A stretch of 64,000 nt of DNA from Patescibacteria group bacterium (GCA_040387635.1 JAZKDJ010000001.1:51851-115850), one strand, 5' to 3'. Positions 8,196-58,524 are shown, counted from the first letter of the stretch. Notes: generated by a model not told the origin, from the sequence alone. Numbers and translations are program-made.

Positions 8196-8200
8196 CAAAC

Positions 8201-8230
8201 AACGGCTCCTTCGCATGCGAAGGAGCCGTT
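8201..8230. terminator. Bidirectional terminator (perfect 30-nt palindrome)
   Basis: AACGGCTCCTTCGCATGCGAAGGAGCCGTT lies between recR (+) and the 77-aa ORF (-). Confidence 0.7.
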
Positions 8231-8256
8231 TGTGTTAAACGTCTGTTTGATTGTGC

Positions 8257-8490
8257 TTAGTGAAGGGTTTCAATCAACCCCTTGCGAGTACCATAGTAAT
8301 GGATACCCAGAAGAAGTGCGAAAACCGCGGCGGTCCCCAGGAGGCCCATGGAGCTGTCGGGAAGATGAACCGGATCCGCATGCGAATGCAGAAGCGGCAC
8401 GTCATCCATGCCATTGCCGTAATGAGCCTGGGCAGGCACTAAAGTTGCCGCCAGAGCAAACAAACAGATGAGAAGAACTTTCGTTTTCAT
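8257..8490 (-). CDS. Small secreted protein with a PEP-CTERM/VPDSG-CTERM-like C-terminal sorting tail
   Basis: Signal peptide MKTKVLLICLFALAATLVPAQA. The C-terminus is HLPDSSMGLLGTAAVFALLLGI followed by basic residues (TRKG). The ORF is GC-rich, has an upstream TGGTATAAA extended -10, and is flanked by terminators. Confidence 0.5.
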   Translation of the reverse strand: MKTKVLLICLFALAATLVPAQAHYGNGMDDVPLLHSHADPVHLPDSSMGLLGTAAVFALLLGIHYYGTRKGLIETLH

Positions 8491-8547
8491 AGGATATCTA
8501 CTGAATTCCGAGCTTGGACTTGGCTTTTTATACCATAGTAGAGCTAT

Positions 8548-8586
8548 AAAAGCAAAAGGCCTCCCGATGGGAGGCCTTTTGCTTTT
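8548..8586. terminator. Bidirectional intrinsic terminator downstream of rplU
   Basis: AAAAGCAAAAGGCCTCCC-gat-GGGAGGCCTTTTGCTTTT. Confidence 0.75.
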
Positions 8587-8607
8587 ATATCTAAACCCTT
8601 ACCTAGC

Positions 8608-8928
8608 TTACTTGAGTGCGTCGATCTTAACCTGGAAGTAAGGCTGTCGATGGCCGTTTTTCTTGAAATATCGGCTCTTCTGCTTGTACCTAATAACATC
8701 AACCTTAGGAGATCGTCCAATCGCAGTAATTGTAGCGCTAACCTTGGCGTCGTTAATAAAAGGCGTTCCGATAGTCGTGTCTGAACCGTTGTCGACAAGG
8801 AGAACCTTATCGAATACGACAGCGTCGCCGATCTTATGTTCGCCGGTCATTTTCTCGATTTTTACAGTATCGCCAACAGCAACTTTGTACTGTTTGCCTC
8901 CTGTTTGAATTACTGCAAATTCTTTCAT
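8608..8928 (-). CDS. rplU: 50S ribosomal protein L21
   Basis: MKEFAVIQTGGKQYKV...VIRYKQKSRYFKKNGHRQPYFQVKI is typical L21. Confidence 0.95.
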   Translation of the reverse strand: MKEFAVIQTGGKQYKVAVGDTVKIEKMTGEHKIGDAVVFDKVLLVDNGSDTTIGTPFINDAKVSATITAIGRSPKVDVIRYKQKSRYFKKNGHRQPYFQVKIDALK

Positions 8929-8999
8929 AGTTTTAACATTCTACACTTTTAGCTTTAAATTGCAAGGCCTATTGGCCAGAATACCTTCCCCACCCGAAC

Positions 9000-40949: not shown

Positions 40950-41975
40950 TTACTTTCTCTTCGAAATCACGCTCTTCTTATATACATCAAGATGATCAAG
41001 TGCGATACCAGTTCCCTTCACAACGCAGAATAGAGCGTCCTCTGCGAGCGTAGCTTTAACGCCTGTCCTTCGAAATACGAGTTCAGGAAAATTACGGAGC
41101 ATTGATGAGCCTCCTGTCATGATAATGCCACGATCGATAATATCTGAAGCGAGTTCAGGCGGTGTCTCTTGGAGCACGTCTCTGATGGCTTTGATCATCT
41201 CTCTAAGCTCTTTGCTTATCGCCTTAACAACTTCATTAGTTTTGATTTCGATAGAACGAGGAAGTCCTGAGATGGAGTCTCTTCCCTTCACCATCATTGA
41301 GAGCTCTTCCTCGAGAGGAATTGCAGATCCAATCTGAATCTTCATATCTTCTGCAGTCTTGTCACCGATCGCAAGGTTGAAAACTTTTTTCACGTAATCA
41401 GCAATGGCAGCATCAATCTTGTTGCCCGCACATTTTACTGAAGTAGACGCAACGATTCCTCCGAGCGAGATCACCGCAACGTCGACAGTTCCTCCTCCAA
41501 TGTCTACGATCATGTGACCCTTAGCTTCGTGAATAGGAATACCTGCACCAATAGCGGCAAGGATGGGCTCTTTGACCACGTAGGCATTTTTTGCACCCGC
41601 TTTGAGAGTTGCTTCAATAACGGCACGTCGTTCAGTAGAGGTAATTCCTGCAGGCACTGACACCATCACCTCAGGCTTGAAGATATTCCACTTGCCCATG
41701 GCTTTGTCGATAAAGTATCGAAGCATGGCTTCAGTCACTCTGTAGTCAGCAATAACACCATCCTTCATGGGTCTATAGGCAGTAATCGTGTCCGGAGTTC
41801 GGCCGATCATTGATTTCGCTTCGAGTCCGACAGCGAGCACCTGCTTGTCTTGAGAAATGGCAACAACGGAAGGCTCATTGAGAACAATTCCCTTACCTGG
41901 GAGGAATACGAGTGTATTCGCAGTACCCAAATCGATTCCCATTTTTTGCGAAAATAGTGCCATATGTGATGGCAC
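40950..41975 (-). CDS. mreB: MreB/Mbl-type actin homolog (copy 2)
   Basis: MGIDLGTANTLVFL, IVDIGGGTVDVAV and IIMTGGSSMLRNF. The true start may be an internal Met (MALFSQKMGIDLG). Confidence 0.9.
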   Translation of the reverse strand: MPSHMALFSQKMGIDLGTANTLVFLPGKGIVLNEPSVVAISQDKQVLAVGLEAKSMIGRTPDTITAYRPMKDGVIADYRVTEAMLRYFIDKAMGKWNIFKPEVMVSVPAGITSTERRAVIEATLKAGAKNAYVVKEPILAAIGAGIPIHEAKGHMIVDIGGGTVDVAVISLGGIVASTSVKCAGNKIDAAIADYVKKVFNLAIGDKTAEDMKIQIGSAIPLEEELSMMVKGRDSISGLPRSIEIKTNEVVKAISKELREMIKAIRDVLQETPPELASDIIDRGIIMTGGSSMLRNFPELVFRRTGVKATLAEDALFCVVKGTGIALDHLDVYKKSVISKRK

Positions 41976-42037: not shown

Positions 42038-43354
42038 CTATTTCGCCTTAACTCGTTCTATCTTCGCACCCAAAGCTTGGAGTCTTTTTTCAAGAGCTTC
42101 ATATCCTCGGTCGATGAGATGAATGTTACAAATTGTTGAGGTACCCTTTGCATTAAGTGCAGCGATGACCGTGGCAAAGCCAGCTCTAATATCAAATGCT
42201 TGGATAATCTCGTCATGAAGAGCGGTGAGCGGCTTGCCTCCTCGAATGAGAATCTCTCTCGGATTCATCACAGTAATATCAGAACCCATTCGAATCAAAT
42301 CTTGAGTGTATTTAAATCTACCTTCATAAATAGTTTCGAAGACCATACTCTCGCCTCCTGTCTGTGCAAGGAAAACTACTAATGGCGCTTGAACGTCTGT
42401 AGGAAAACCTGGATACTCGTGCGTCCTTACATTCATGCTCTTGAGCTTTGTAGAATCAATAGTGTTATCAAAAATCTTTACGTAGTCCTGACCAATCTCT
42501 AGCTTCACCCCACAGCTCTGAAGAAGTGACGTTACAGCCTCGAGGTGTGCAGGGTTACATGATGCGACAGTTAGTTCTTCAGCGCACACAGCTCCCAAGA
42601 AAAGAAAACTTGCTGCCTCAATCCTGTCTGGAATAGTGACAAACTCTTTACCCTTCGATTCGAGCAATCCTTGCGGACCAGCCCCAGTAATTCGAAGTGT
42701 CGTTGTACCGATACCCTCAATCTTTGCACCGCATGCGACAAGATACTCAGCGAGATTAACAATCTCAGGCTCAAGCGCGCAGTTCTTGAGAATTGTTGTT
42801 CCATGTGCAAGAACAGCAGCCATCATAAGGGTTTCAGTACCTCCTACAGTTTGGATTGGAAAAAATATCTCTGCAGCCTTGAGACCATCCTTAGGAGCCG
42901 TGATTACGAAGCTATCTTCAACGAGTTCTACCTTTGCACCCATCTTTTCGTATCCGCTCAAAAACAAATCAATAGGTCGAGTTCCAATAACGCATCCTCC
43001 TGGAGCTGGAAAAGTTACTCTTCCATATCGACCAAGCATAGGTCCCGTGAGAACTACTGACGCTCTCATGCTTTGTGCTAGATCATGATCAATGTCTGTA
43101 GATGTGATTGTAGACGCATTAAATTTTCCAGAGTGATCAGAGCCTAGTGATATAGTAGCGCCGATTTTGGTAAGGATCGTAGAGAGCTTCTTAACGTCAT
43201 CCGTGTTTGGAATATTTTTGATGGAAACTTCATCCCTAAAAAGAATTGAAGCGGGTATGGCTTTGAGAACGGCATTTTTAGCTCCGTTTATCGTAACAGT
43301 TCCCTTAAGCTTCTTCTCACCAGCCAAACCCTGAATTATGAAATTTTCTGACAT
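42038..43354 (-). CDS. murA: UDP-N-acetylglucosamine 1-carboxyvinyltransferase
   Basis: EPSP-synthase-like fold with the active-site loop PGGCVIGTRPIDL; 438 aa. Confidence 0.95.
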   Translation of the reverse strand: MSENFIIQGLAGEKKLKGTVTINGAKNAVLKAIPASILFRDEVSIKNIPNTDDVKKLSTILTKIGATISLGSDHSGKFNASTITSTDIDHDLAQSMRASVVLTGPMLGRYGRVTFPAPGGCVIGTRPIDLFLSGYEKMGAKVELVEDSFVITAPKDGLKAAEIFFPIQTVGGTETLMMAAVLAHGTTILKNCALEPEIVNLAEYLVACGAKIEGIGTTTLRITGAGPQGLLESKGKEFVTIPDRIEAASFLFLGAVCAEELTVASCNPAHLEAVTSLLQSCGVKLEIGQDYVKIFDNTIDSTKLKSMNVRTHEYPGFPTDVQAPLVVFLAQTGGESMVFETIYEGRFKYTQDLIRMGSDITVMNPREILIRGGKPLTALHDEIIQAFDIRAGFATVIAALNAKGTSTICNIHLIDRGYEALEKRLQALGAKIERVKAK

Positions 43355-43446: not shown

Positions 43447-43626
43447 TTATTTCTTGGACTCCTTGAAAGCTACATGCTTTCGAAGCTTCTTGCTGAACTT
43501 TTTGAGCTCGATCTTTCGCTCAACCTTCTTGCGGTTCTTGCGGGTCCAGTAAACTTCGCCCGTCTGTTTGTTCTTAAGTTGTATGAGTTGGTCCTGTGAC
43601 ATGACTAAATTATTACGTTTGGACAT
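43447..43626 (-). CDS. rpmG: 50S ribosomal protein L33 (Cys-less form)
   Basis: MSKRNN...YWTRKNRKKVERKIELKKFSKKLRKHVAFKESKK. I trimmed the start from the TTG at 43653, which lies inside the upstream T-run. Confidence 0.85.
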   Translation of the reverse strand: MSKRNNLVMSQDQLIQLKNKQTGEVYWTRKNRKKVERKIELKKFSKKLRKHVAFKESKK

Positions 43627-43642
43627 TCTGGCATGGATATTC

Positions 43643-43687
43643 AAAAAAAACAAGGGCCAGTCTCGAACGTGAGTTCAAGACCGGCCC
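43643..43687 (-). terminator. Strong intrinsic terminator 17 nt upstream of the rpmG start codon
   Basis: On the minus strand: GGGCCGGTCT-loop-AGACTGGCCC (10 bp, one G-U pair) followed by TTGTTTTTTTT. Confidence 0.75.
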
Positions 43688-44031
43688 TACTGCTTTTCGC
43701 CCGTTAGGACGAAGCAGGAGCATAGATGCGCAAACGCACCCAAATCCGAAGTCGGACATCAAATCACCTCGAAGTCCTTAGGAAGGACTTTTGCTCCCTT
43801 ACGAGAACATGTAGGACGAAGCAAAGAGATGCCGACCGGTTCGCGTGTCCCGGAAGCCTCCTGAGACACGCAAATTCTGCAAAGTACTGGGGAAATTGCG
43901 GCGAATAGATGAACCCAACATCAGCTACTGCCGGAAGAGGACTGCAGTCCATTCAACAACACGTGTCGTATGACTCTGACGAGCGCAAATCCATGCACTC
44001 AATCAAACTGTACAATACACCTGCTGTCCTC
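43688..44031 (-). ncRNA. Candidate structured RNA of unknown class (about 380 nt including the terminator)
   Basis: This is a GC-rich tract with no credible ORF. A putative promoter lies on the minus strand: TTGACT (44061-44066), 17 nt, then TAGTCT (44038-44043). There are many local hairpins and an 11-nt repeat GCTTCGTCCTA. The 5' segment GGACAGCAGG (44020-44029) is complementary to both repeat copies. Confidence 0.45.
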
Positions 44032-44142
44032 AATAAAAGACTACTCCTAGCGCAGAACTTAGTCAATACAGGGCCATAATCCACACCTGAGTCAATATCT
44101 GGTTTCCAAGCCAGCCGTATTACAATTAACCTCAAGAATCCC

Positions 44143-45303
44143 ATGAAGCTTTTCATAAAAAATCTCATCCGACGTAATAGGCAGCCCAAGTATTCCCCTC
44201 TCATCGGTGTATATATTTCGAAGAGTGCGATTCTCCATAACTACGAACAGTTCAAAAAACTTTCAAACAAACCTGTAGCACCTGTACTCAAGAGCAATGC
44301 CTACGGCCACGGACTCATTGAAGTCGCTACCATCATTGAAGAAACAAAGCCTCCATTCATAGTTATTGATTCCCTCTTCGAAGCTCACGCGTTGCGGAAC
44401 AACGGTATCAAAAGCAAACTCTTCATTATCGGCTACACACGCCCTTCAGACATAAGCAAAGCAGCACTCCAAAACGTTTCATTCGCAATCACAAGCATTG
44501 AAGCCTTGAAAGAAATCTGCGAATACAAAAACCACAATATATCCATCCATCTCAAGATCGACACAGGCATGCATCGACAAGGCGTGCTCATAAATCAAGT
44601 AGATGAATGCATAGCGATGATCACATCCAGCAAGCATATTAGTCTCCAAGGCATCTGTTCCCACCTTGCCGATGCTGATACTGACAATAGTGCACACACT
44701 GAATCTCAGATCACAGCATGGAATTCTCTCGTCAAAAAGTTCAAAAGTTTATCATCCTCATTTCCTTCCCTTGTACATTTTCATGTAAGCAATTCAGCTG
44801 GCCATGCGCACGAGAAAAAAATAGACTCAACAGTCTCACGTCTCGGCATTGGACTATATGGTCTCGATTCAAGCGATACCATCAAAAAAGAAAACATTAT
44901 TCTCAAACCAGCGCTCACAATGAGCACTGTTATCAGCTCTGTAAAGACTTTGAAGAAGAATGGACTAGTTGGCTACAACGGCACCTTTGAAGCTCCGCAG
45001 GATTTAACGATCGCAACCATTCCTATGGGATATTTTGAAGGAATTGATCGCAGACTTTCAAGCAAAGGATTTGTGTATATCAAAAACACACCCTGCCCCA
45101 TCATTGGCCGGGTAAGCATGAACATCACTACTATAGATGTAAGCGCGGTTCCTAACGTTTCCCTCAATGACAATGTCGATGTGATAAGTCCTGACAATAC
45201 GCGACAAAACTCCATAGTAGCTATTGCTCGCCTATGCCAAACAATTCCCTATGAGATTGCCGTTCACATTCCTTCCCACTTGAGGAGGATCGTTACTGAA
45301 TAG
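44143..45303 (+). CDS. alr: Alanine racemase
   Basis: PLP-lysine motif APVLKSNAYGHG and a C-terminal beta-domain with GYNGTF...PMGYFEG. Confidence 0.9.
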   Translation: MKLFIKNLIRRNRQPKYSPLIGVYISKSAILHNYEQFKKLSNKPVAPVLKSNAYGHGLIEVATIIEETKPPFIVIDSLFEAHALRNNGIKSKLFIIGYTRPSDISKAALQNVSFAITSIEALKEICEYKNHNISIHLKIDTGMHRQGVLINQVDECIAMITSSKHISLQGICSHLADADTDNSAHTESQITAWNSLVKKFKSLSSSFPSLVHFHVSNSAGHAHEKKIDSTVSRLGIGLYGLDSSDTIKKENIILKPALTMSTVISSVKTLKKNGLVGYNGTFEAPQDLTIATIPMGYFEGIDRRLSSKGFVYIKNTPCPIIGRVSMNITTIDVSAVPNVSLNDNVDVISPDNTRQNSIVAIARLCQTIPYEIAVHIPSHLRRIVTE

Positions 45304-45313
45304 TTTCTTAAAG

Positions 45314-45397
45314 TGCGTCGGGTTGGATTCGAACCAACGAAGCCCAATGGGCGACAGATTTACAGTCTGTTGCGATAGACCACTCCGCCACCGACGC
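45314..45397 (-). tRNA. tRNA-Tyr (anticodon GUA), long variable arm
   Basis: Acceptor GCGTCGG/CCGACGC, anticodon loop CTGTAAA, T-arm GTTGG-TTCGAAT-CCAAC. Confidence 0.9.
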
Positions 45398-57219: not shown

Positions 57220-58524
57220 ATGAAAGTTACGAATCTCAAGGCCGTTGCAACCGCAACTGGCTGGAAACTCACCTTCACACCTCTCGCTGCGCCTACAGCC
57301 ACACCGCCAGCAACCGCAGCTCCGCATAAGTACACTTTGTACCTTTCGGAAAATGCTGACTGGCTCAATAGCTGGCAGGCTGCCGATGCCGGTCTTCGCT
57401 CACAAAGTGTGACCGAAGTGGCAAGAGCAACAAGCAGTGGTGAATTCAACGTCCGTTGGACCAAAGGTCCATTCTTCGCGACTGTCGTCCCGGTGAATCC
57501 GGCGACTGGTGCTGAAGAAGAAGCGGAGACCATCCGCGTTGACGAGCATCCTCAGAACGTGGCACGGAAAAAGAAAATCCGTAACACGTTCTTGTGGGCT
57601 GCAGGCGTCGCTGTGTTGATCATCGCGGCCGTCATCGGAGCTTGGTACCTCTACACAGAGGTCATCAAGCCGAGATCAGCAAGGAAGCAGATCGCCATCA
57701 ATCAGGCGGCGAACACGCCGTACACGGCGGATGCTTCGGTAGCGTCGGACATCGCAGATTCCAGAGCGGCAAATGATGCTCGCATGGATCGAATCGAAGC
57801 CGCACTGCAGGCTCTCATACGACCACCTGCACCTGCCGCCCAGATCCCAACGGATCGTGGACAGCAGGTCTTGGCGCCGCAAGGCAGCCTAGGTTCATTT
57901 GGCACTTCTCCTCATCAGGAAACCCCTGCTACAGGAGTTCGCCATCGAACCATCGCTCACCCGCCGCGCACCGAAAACGGTCGCACCTTCTACCCTGTTA
58001 CTGAACAGGTGGAAGTAACGAGTGAGATCAGCACGCCGGCCGTCGGTGCGCAAGGCAACGTTGGCACGGTTCCTTCAGGAAGCGGTGGGTTGAGTGGTCG
58101 AGTTGATCACTATCACCACTTCGATCCTGTTCAAGGAAACGTCGCTGGCAACCTAGGAATTGCTCCTCGGCAGCCTGCTACGACACGACAACCGGCTGTT
58201 GCGCCTAACGCCCCTACGGCAACGCAACGTCCCAACATCGTGCGCATGCGAAATGAGCCGGCCCTTATCCGCATTGAACCGGGCCAAGAGGTTCGAGTGT
58301 GGAAGGCATCGAATCGGGAACTTCATTTCAGGCCCGAAACGTACAACAATCCCGACCTCCAAATCATGGCAGAAACCAGCACGGGAGAAATCGTGCCGGT
58401 GGAAAATCTGGCCGTGATGCAGGGATCGACGGACAACAGGGTGTCTGCACCTTGGGCAGTGTTCAAAAACAATGGACGCAGCGTGCAAACAGTGCACATC
58501 ACCTACACTGATAAGTACCAGTGA
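57220..58524 (+). CDS. Single-pass membrane protein: beta-rich N-domain, TM, Pro/Ala/Gln-rich linker, beta-rich C-domain (GC-rich)
   Basis: It has no signal peptide. The TM is FLWAAGVAVLIIAAVIGAWYLY, preceded by ARKKKIR. The linker is low complexity (PPAPAAQIPTDRGQQVLAPQG...). I recognise no family. Confidence 0.5.
   Translation: MKVTNLKAVATATGWKLTFTPLAAPTATPPATAAPHKYTLYLSENADWLNSWQAADAGLRSQSVTEVARATSSGEFNVRWTKGPFFATVVPVNPATGAEEEAETIRVDEHPQNVARKKKIRNTFLWAAGVAVLIIAAVIGAWYLYTEVIKPRSARKQIAINQAANTPYTADASVASDIADSRAANDARMDRIEAALQALIRPPAPAAQIPTDRGQQVLAPQGSLGSFGTSPHQETPATGVRHRTIAHPPRTENGRTFYPVTEQVEVTSEISTPAVGAQGNVGTVPSGSGGLSGRVDHYHHFDPVQGNVAGNLGIAPRQPATTRQPAVAPNAPTATQRPNIVRMRNEPALIRIEPGQEVRVWKASNRELHFRPETYNNPDLQIMAETSTGEIVPVENLAVMQGSTDNRVSAPWAVFKNNGRSVQTVHITYTDKYQ

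Follow-up and report, generated by a model that had tools for sequence, protein, structure and literature searches.

What occupies the spacer between the divergently oriented genes alr and rpmG in a patescibacterial genome? The DNA analysed here, a 64-kb Patescibacteria stretch (hereafter the window), belongs to a Paceibacteria/Parcubacteria-like genome in which alr (alanine racemase, 44143–45303, plus strand) stands back to back with rpmG (ribosomal protein L33, 51 aa with an MSQDQL start, 43447–43602, minus strand). The Alr protein (P0001) contains PF01168 and PF00842 and is 100% identical to an NCBI "Patescibacteria group bacterium" protein, while L33 matches a 51-aa NCBI L33 (P0121) at 100%; homologues of the latter are annotated as Paceibacterota, Minisyncoccia, Taylorbacteria and Zambryskibacteria. 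Beyond rpmG follow murA (42038–43354, minus) and mreB (40950–41975, minus), and on the other side of alr lies a tRNA-Tyr gene (45313–45397, minus). In an otherwise compact neighbourhood, the alr–rpmG spacer (43603–44142) is the longest stretch of the 64 kb without a credible ORF or tRNA, and every other gap of more than 400 nt contains a small gene. When other long gaps in the window were checked for noncoding RNAs (ncRNAs), small ribosomal-protein or secreted-protein genes and terminators were found instead. The apparent gap of 804 nt at 8196–8999 holds rplU (L21, 8608–8928, minus), a 77-aa putative secreted protein (8257–8490, minus) and two strong terminator hairpins, which explain its high structure scores.

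The initial annotation had read the spacer as a GC-rich, ORF-poor and highly structured minus-strand transcript, either a free-standing RNA or a very long leader of rpmG. The sequence itself is unlikely to be an assembly artefact, because a Logan contig of the same organism, listed separately, is 100% identical across the element region. As to composition, the GC content of the element does exceed the window average, albeit modestly (52% vs 45%).

The high degree of structure was borne out. On the minus strand, the region 43640–44035 folds with a minimum free energy (MFE) of −170.1 kcal/mol (z −7.6), and none of 100 shuffled controls folded equally well; the plus strand of the same region reaches −127.6 kcal/mol (z −4.4). 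This asymmetry of 42 kcal/mol favours the minus strand because many of its pairs are G–U pairs, which become A–C mismatches on the opposite strand. Our analyses thereby establish a strand-specific fold, and such an asymmetry is a signature of RNA structure and not of DNA structure. The core of the element (43689–43876, 188 nt, terminator excluded), in which most of this signal resides, has an MFE of −85.2 kcal/mol (z −6.05), with a centroid identical to the MFE structure. In a 188-nt tiling of the whole window on both strands, it ranks second among 680 tiles despite the exclusion of the terminator; another top-ranked tile, where inspected, held terminators. The 5′ part (43877–44035) has a z score of only −2.3; with structure so marginal in the first 155 nt of the predicted transcript, the actual RNA may be a shorter one. 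Elsewhere in the window, the tile 57789–57976 (minus) has the lowest absolute energy among the 188-nt tiles, −92.8 kcal/mol, with a z score of −4.3 (−3.9 on the plus strand). It lies within a 434-aa Ala/Pro/Thr-rich low-complexity gene (57220–58524), and its fold is probably a composition effect.

Where would such an RNA begin? Direct reading of the minus strand reveals a −35-like hexamer, TTGACT (44061–44066), which agrees with the consensus at five of six positions, followed after 17 nt by a −10-like hexamer, TAGTCT (44038–44043), in the TAnnnT form that precedes many genes of this genome. Of the minus-strand promoter claimed at first, the hexamers and their 17-nt spacing are thus in place, but in total only 8 of the 12 bases of TTGACT-17-TAGTCT fit the consensus, and a consensus scan did not pick this promoter up. 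With its good −35 box and ideal spacing, this candidate promoter points to a transcription start that we infer near 44031. The predicted transcript (43643–44031, minus) would measure about 389 nt, with an MFE of −170 kcal/mol (z −7.6) and a 3′ end within a T8 run. Between alr and this candidate promoter lies a 16-nt imperfect direct repeat (13/16; 44053–44068 and 44082–44097) that contains TATTGACT on the minus strand and whose copies are 29 nt apart. The two copies may represent −35 boxes, or else an operator of the divergent promoters.

The architecture of the predicted RNA is uneven. The GGACAGCAGG of the predicted 5′ end was confirmed by direct reading at 44029–44020, and so were the hairpins listed in the initial annotation (GGAC-tgca-GTCC, GTGTC..GACAC, AGTCCTT-cct-AAGGACT, TCCG-actt-CGGA and CTGCTT-CGTCC-taac-GGGCG-A-AAGCAG). 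The 5′ domain (43877–44031, minus, z −2.3) is weakly supported: its confident hairpins are those at 44007–43975 and 43933–43899 (P 0.9–0.99), while the remaining helices stay below P 0.5. The helices of the core, by contrast in z score (−6.05 vs −2.3), have pairing probabilities of 0.93–1.0. In the 5′-to-3′ direction of the minus strand, the core comprises a 15-bp hairpin (43874–43840), a three-way junction (43839–43746) and two further hairpins (43742–43723 and 43717–43690). The junction includes a GUAA-capped (GNRA) hairpin at 43809–43792 and a AAGUCCUU-CCU-AAGGACUU hairpin at 43790–43772 (P 0.93).

The core also carries a repeat, described at first as an 11-nt sequence occurring twice. Two copies are indeed present; the repeat is actually an exact 12-nt one, TGCTTCGTCCTA on the minus strand, at 43705–43716 and 43812–43823. 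These are its only two exact copies in the 64-kb window, and by our estimate the chance of such a 12-nt repeat within some 400 nt is about 0.005. Copy A (UGCUUCGUCCUA, 43812–43823, minus) pairs through its 5′ part with CGAGGUGA in the three-way junction, whereas copy B (43705–43716, minus) supplies the 5′ strand of the hairpin that immediately precedes the terminator. Two roles had been suggested for the pairing of the 5′ end with these copies, and neither fared well. A P1-like closing helix between the 5′ end and the 3′ part (AGCAGG:CCUGCU) would form with a probability no higher than about 0.18. As for mutually exclusive pairings, the conformer that was tested, in which copy A takes the partner of copy B, is 16 kcal/mol worse than the MFE structure, and riboswitch-like switching by way of the 12-nt repeat was rejected as being uphill by that amount. 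When the repeat motif was used to look for trans targets, 10 sites turned up where 4.8 were expected, and none was notable.

The 3′ end is formed by an intrinsic terminator (43643–43688, minus), consisting of a 16-bp stem (43688–43653) with a UCAC loop and a T8 run (43650–43643). Its hairpin is the strongest in 20 kb (−29.6 kcal/mol) and pairs with a probability of about 1. The strength of the terminator and its T8 run thus agree with the first reading, which had also placed it 17 nt before rpmG. That distance, 16–17 nt, applies to the ATG at 43626, while the conserved start of the gene lies 40 nt past the T-run.

Could the region encode protein instead? ORFs of 36–83 aa occur on both strands, and these are what a reading of the element as one or more small-protein genes, or as a decayed protein gene, can appeal to. 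The longest of them inside the element has 62 aa, and the 83-aa ORF begins antisense within alr. Pfam searches on seven ORFs returned noise only. Against 1.84 billion representative proteins, the 62-aa ORF found repetitive-protein noise and no real homologue, and the homologue search with the 48-aa ORF was empty. No gene was called in the element in the Logan assembly of the same organism, and tblastx revealed no similarity to the genes that fill the corresponding spacer in relatives. Together with the 42 kcal/mol strand asymmetry, an RNA signature, these results make a protein-coding origin hardly credible. The lack of coding potential is thereby established, in agreement with the first description of the region as ORF-poor and without a credible protein.

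One of these ORFs deserves separate mention. A 48-codon frame (43613–43759, minus) begins with an AUG at 43759 behind the Shine–Dalgarno (SD)-like GAGGUGAU, runs through the terminator and ends in UAAUAA; we judge it to be a chance occurrence. The window has 45 instances of an SD-like sequence followed by ATG, most of them not at gene starts, and any SD-like motif at all stands upstream of only about 10 of 50 long ORFs. A TAnnnT box, on the other hand, ends 4–12 nt before the ATG in 17 of 39 genes, vs 11% of background positions. The frequency of this box suggests leaderless mRNAs, and the sequence patterns point to an SD-poor genome in which such mRNAs are widespread, murA (ttgTACAATtacacctATG) being an example.

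If the element is an RNA gene, does it belong to a known family? Rfam 15 at gathering thresholds recognized six tRNAs in the window and nothing else. Relaxing the cut-off to E ≤ 10 brought up no relevant match in 901 nt and no match whatsoever in the 431-nt element, and at gathering thresholds 13 relatives and 10 further loci likewise yielded tRNAs only. ARAGORN detected no tmRNA at its default or 90% thresholds; at 75% its single proposal was a "permuted tmRNA" on the plus strand, a low-threshold artefact whose tag, EPNISYCRKRTAVHSTTRVV, is implausible. The initial annotation had noted that signatures of RNase P RNA, tmRNA and SRP RNA were absent, and Rfam, ARAGORN and direct reading concur. 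The strands of the RNase P P4 helix, CR-I GAGGAAAGUCC and CR-V ACAGAAnnnGGCUUA, were not found on direct reading, nor was ACAnAA...GGCUUA, and the sole AAAGUCC lies in the local hairpin 43790–43772 (P 0.93).

Four candidates were rejected on these grounds. RNase P RNA has no RF00010 or RF00011 match at gathering thresholds or at E ≤ 10, and its P4 strands are missing. For tmRNA, the tRNA-like domain, the GGUUCGA T-arm and the acceptor end are lacking, and the 3′ end is a terminator. SRP RNA has no Rfam match at gathering thresholds or at E ≤ 10, and its domain IV motif is missing. A match to 6S RNA is likewise lacking in Rfam, and the several hairpins and three-way junction differ from its single long bulged helix. 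A broader possibility is that the element is one of these housekeeping RNAs in a form so diverged that the standard models miss it. The size of the element would suit RNase P RNA or tmRNA, and RNase P RNAs that fall below Rfam thresholds have been reported from CPR bacteria; RF00010 nevertheless detected those diverged forms, albeit with low bit scores (Lui et al. 2021, PMC8172020), whereas here nothing appeared at E ≤ 10 on 431 nt. The absence of CR-I, of any P4 strand and of a T-arm or acceptor end, the negative ARAGORN result and the 6S-unlike arrangement of hairpins also argue against it, and we regard such an origin as very improbable.

We therefore turn to relatives, for which L33 (86–94% identity), being more conserved, served as the anchor. 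The L33-anchored set comprises some 30 related contigs with about ten distinct versions of the spacer, and none carries the element. The divergent alr|rpmG pair itself is widely kept among those contigs that include the upstream gene. Two main arrangements are seen: a spacer of 51–70 nt (loci L025, L029–L031, L040, L041 and the L053 group, L053–L058 and L062) and a spacer filled by unrelated protein genes (L026 and most of L043–L052); L039 and L042 are different again, also without the element. In L026 (1402–3000) and in L043 (5670–8509) and its relatives L044–L052, the spacer carries two unrelated genes without Pfam domains, encoding 86 and 343 aa in L026 and about 333 and 373 aa in L043; a further gap of some 430 nt precedes rpmG. 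The alr|rpmG spacer is thus an insertion hot spot. The absence of the element from the retrieved relatives is established, and because their spacers either measure 51–70 nt or hold unrelated protein genes, the element represents an insertion of about 470 nt, specific to this lineage, into what was ancestrally a spacer with promoters in both directions.

More distant searches gave the same picture. The best non-self Alr homologue is 55% identical, indicating that no close relative is present in the protein collection. Genome and metagenome contigs anchored on MurA reached at most 61% identity and contained neither the synteny nor the element, and exact look-ups of the MurA and MreB proteins for strain variants returned no record. 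No homologue was detected with nhmmer, blastn or tblastx in any of the retrieved loci, and a single-sequence covariance model of the core found nothing in 473 kb of related loci. On the far side of rpmG, the relatives have a 71-nt tRNA gene just downstream (L029 3200–3270, L053 10297–10367, L043 8740–8810, L026 3825–3895). The window is without it and has murA after rpmG, which implies a further rearrangement on that side.

The relatives also clarify how rpmG is transcribed. The initial annotation held that the gene has no room for its own promoter after the terminator, an argument that rested on a start at 43626. We set the L33 start from homologues: most of the 120 listed have 51 aa, and all those inspected have MSQ at this point. 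The conserved start is accordingly at 43602, which rules out the ATG at 43626 as the beginning of the gene. With this correction, the 40–50 nt from the terminator to the gene accommodate, in the alignment with relatives, a promoter (43625–43653, minus) with a −35 box TTGTTT at 43653–43648, a 17-nt spacer and a −10 box CAGAAT at 43630–43625. The −35 box overlaps the terminator T-tract of the upstream element. The TTGTTT-17-CAGAAT of the window shares alignment columns with TTGCGG/TTGCTT-17-TATAGT of the relatives, and the decamer GTCCAAACGT directly past the −10 box is identical in L040. The rpmG start and core promoter are conserved in Paceibacteria relatives (L025, L029, L040, L043, L053), in the form of a −35 TTGnnn, 17 nt, a −10 TATAGT and 20–22 nt to the ATG. 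The comparison thus shows that rpmG keeps an orthologous promoter of its own between the terminator and the gene. In L026, a protein gene preceding rpmG ends in a terminator that is just as far from rpmG; a terminator located here does no more than end the preceding transcription unit.

These observations bear directly on the proposal of a long cis-acting leader or attenuator of rpmG, in which read-through would take place only when the terminator is bypassed, for instance by a ribosome translating the 48-codon ORF (AUG 43759, SD-like GAGGUGAU) through it. The element is co-oriented with rpmG and directly upstream of it, the SD-like sequence and AUG are sequestered in the three-way junction, and the UAAUAA at which the ORF stops lies 8 nt before the rpmG AUG, all of which such a leader would share. 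Against it, rpmG keeps an orthologous promoter downstream of the terminator, and no relative carries a leader in a spacer that is either 51–70 nt long or filled with protein genes. In our test for a competing antiterminator by single-sequence thermodynamics, the terminator formed with P ~1, and the one alternative conformer tested, the repeat-based exchange described above, carried the same cost of 16 kcal/mol. The bypass by translation is disfavoured by the SD-poor, largely leaderless character of the genome, by the 45 occurrences of SD plus ATG in the window, mostly away from genes, and by the lack of a homologue of the 48-aa peptide. The very long attenuator-type leader suggested initially thus loses its footing on several counts (the promoter past the terminator, the relatives, the equivalent terminator in L026 and the disfavoured pairing switch), and we consider this reading quite improbable.

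A more serious alternative arises from the insertion itself. The element may be a relic of foreign or mobile DNA, a structured RNA that evolved elsewhere (in a mobile element, an intron-like insertion, or as a phage or plasmid RNA) and has no function here beyond its terminator. We regard this as the main rival, possible but on the doubtful side. Its absence from all relatives, the uptake of unrelated protein genes at the same hot spot in other lineages and the GC content of 52% vs 45% would all fit such a relic, as would the lack of demonstrable purifying selection that follows from its absence in all retrieved relatives. The element could be a recent, possibly non-functional acquisition. The usual marks of mobility, however, are missing. 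Convincing terminal inverted repeats or target duplications are lacking, as is a second copy in the window; a 10-nt inverted repeat (9/10) is at chance level by our estimate and would enclose the conserved rpmG promoter. Neither blastn against phage and plasmid collections nor scans of viral contigs with four patterns gave a true match: a 16-mer scan produced six matches, none of them further similar by nhmmer, and the other three scans were empty. No integrase, reverse transcriptase or transposase is found near the element. The window genes around it are all housekeeping (ClpB, a class-V aminotransferase, IF-2, RRF, an M50 peptidase, a class II aminoacyl-tRNA synthetase and a second MreB), and the macro-synteny with relatives, aminotransferase ... 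ClpB ... tRNA ... alr | rpmG, is conserved. Moreover, very small genomes tend to delete useless DNA fast, which counts against a relic. A miniature inverted-repeat element (MITE) was also considered and rejected, the element being unique in the window and its sole inverted repeat being the 10-nt, chance-level one.

The reading that we favour, with about even confidence, is that the element is an orphan gene for an independently transcribed, trans-acting structured ncRNA. It would be a self-contained, lineage-specific gene of about 390 nt, contained in the roughly 470 nt inserted between the back-to-back promoters of alr and rpmG. Transcription of the minus strand would proceed from TTGACT-17-TAGTCT with a start near 44031. 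The RNA is predicted to fold into a loose 5′ domain and a very stable 188-nt core, composed of a hairpin, the three-way junction and two further hairpins, and would end constitutively at the −29.6 kcal/mol terminator. The downstream rpmG gene would be transcribed separately, from its own conserved promoter overlapping the terminator T-tract. Because termination would be constitutive and rpmG would have its own conserved promoter, action in trans appears most likely, as a regulatory or protein-binding RNA (an RNP scaffold) and not as a cis leader. Judging by its size, its GNRA-capped three-way junction and the duplicated 12-nt motif, the RNA is less likely to be a simple base-pairing sRNA than one with a regulatory or protein-binding role. 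It is transcription, the position of the 5′ end and any function in trans that we infer here, whereas the fold, the terminator and the arrangement in relatives are observed.

A bolder version of this explanation would take the element as the first example of a hitherto unseen class of large structured RNAs with several domains, acting as a ribozyme or as an RNP scaffold. Such a class would be confined to a deep-branching Paceibacteria lineage without sequenced close relatives, and the RNA would have been kept as the largest noncoding element of the region in a genome with a main contig of about 0.6 Mb. We consider this unlikely. Genomes of CPR/Patescibacteria are tiny and have few known regulators, and to our knowledge almost nothing is known of their noncoding RNAs. 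If expressed and conserved, a strongly folded RNA of about 390 nt would thus be a lead to lineage-specific RNA biology. At present, as a single-genome orphan, it is a candidate and not an established discovery. The local annotation has in any case been corrected on three points: the start of rpmG, the conserved promoter of that gene, and a gene organization in this genome that is leaderless and poor in SD sequences.

How does the element compare with known systems? RNase P RNA (RF00010/RF00011, including the diverged CPR forms, PMC8172020) resembles it in size, in its multi-helix architecture and in the CPR host, where rnpB can be atypical. It differs in that the element is without P4 strands or CR-I/CR-V, has no covariance-model match at E ≤ 10 and is closed by a terminator hairpin instead of a P1 helix. 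The likeness to tmRNA extends to size and the cluster of hairpins, but a tRNA-like domain, an alanine-acceptor end and a plausible tag frame are lacking, in line with ARAGORN. Ribosomal-protein leaders and attenuators, in particular leader-peptide attenuators of the pyrBI type, share the location upstream of a ribosomal protein gene, the common orientation, the terminator near the gene and an ORF crossing that terminator. Here, in contrast, a conserved promoter lies past the terminator, relatives show no conservation of the element, an antiterminator is missing, the peptide is not conserved and SD sequences are hardly used.

The remaining comparison is with stand-alone structured ncRNA genes that end in Rho-independent terminators. 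Surveys of GC-rich, long intergenic regions yield large sRNA-like or "orphan" bacterial ncRNAs (PMC8632094, PMC6429828). At about 390 nt, the element is far larger than typical base-pairing sRNAs; it comes from a single genome only and has no known family, homologue, partner protein or target. If real, it would be an orphan among the bacterial stand-alone structured ncRNAs and not demonstrably a new kind of system. With these genes it has in common its location in a long intergenic region, a GC content above the genome average, a strand-specific fold, a candidate promoter, a strong terminator and its noncoding nature.
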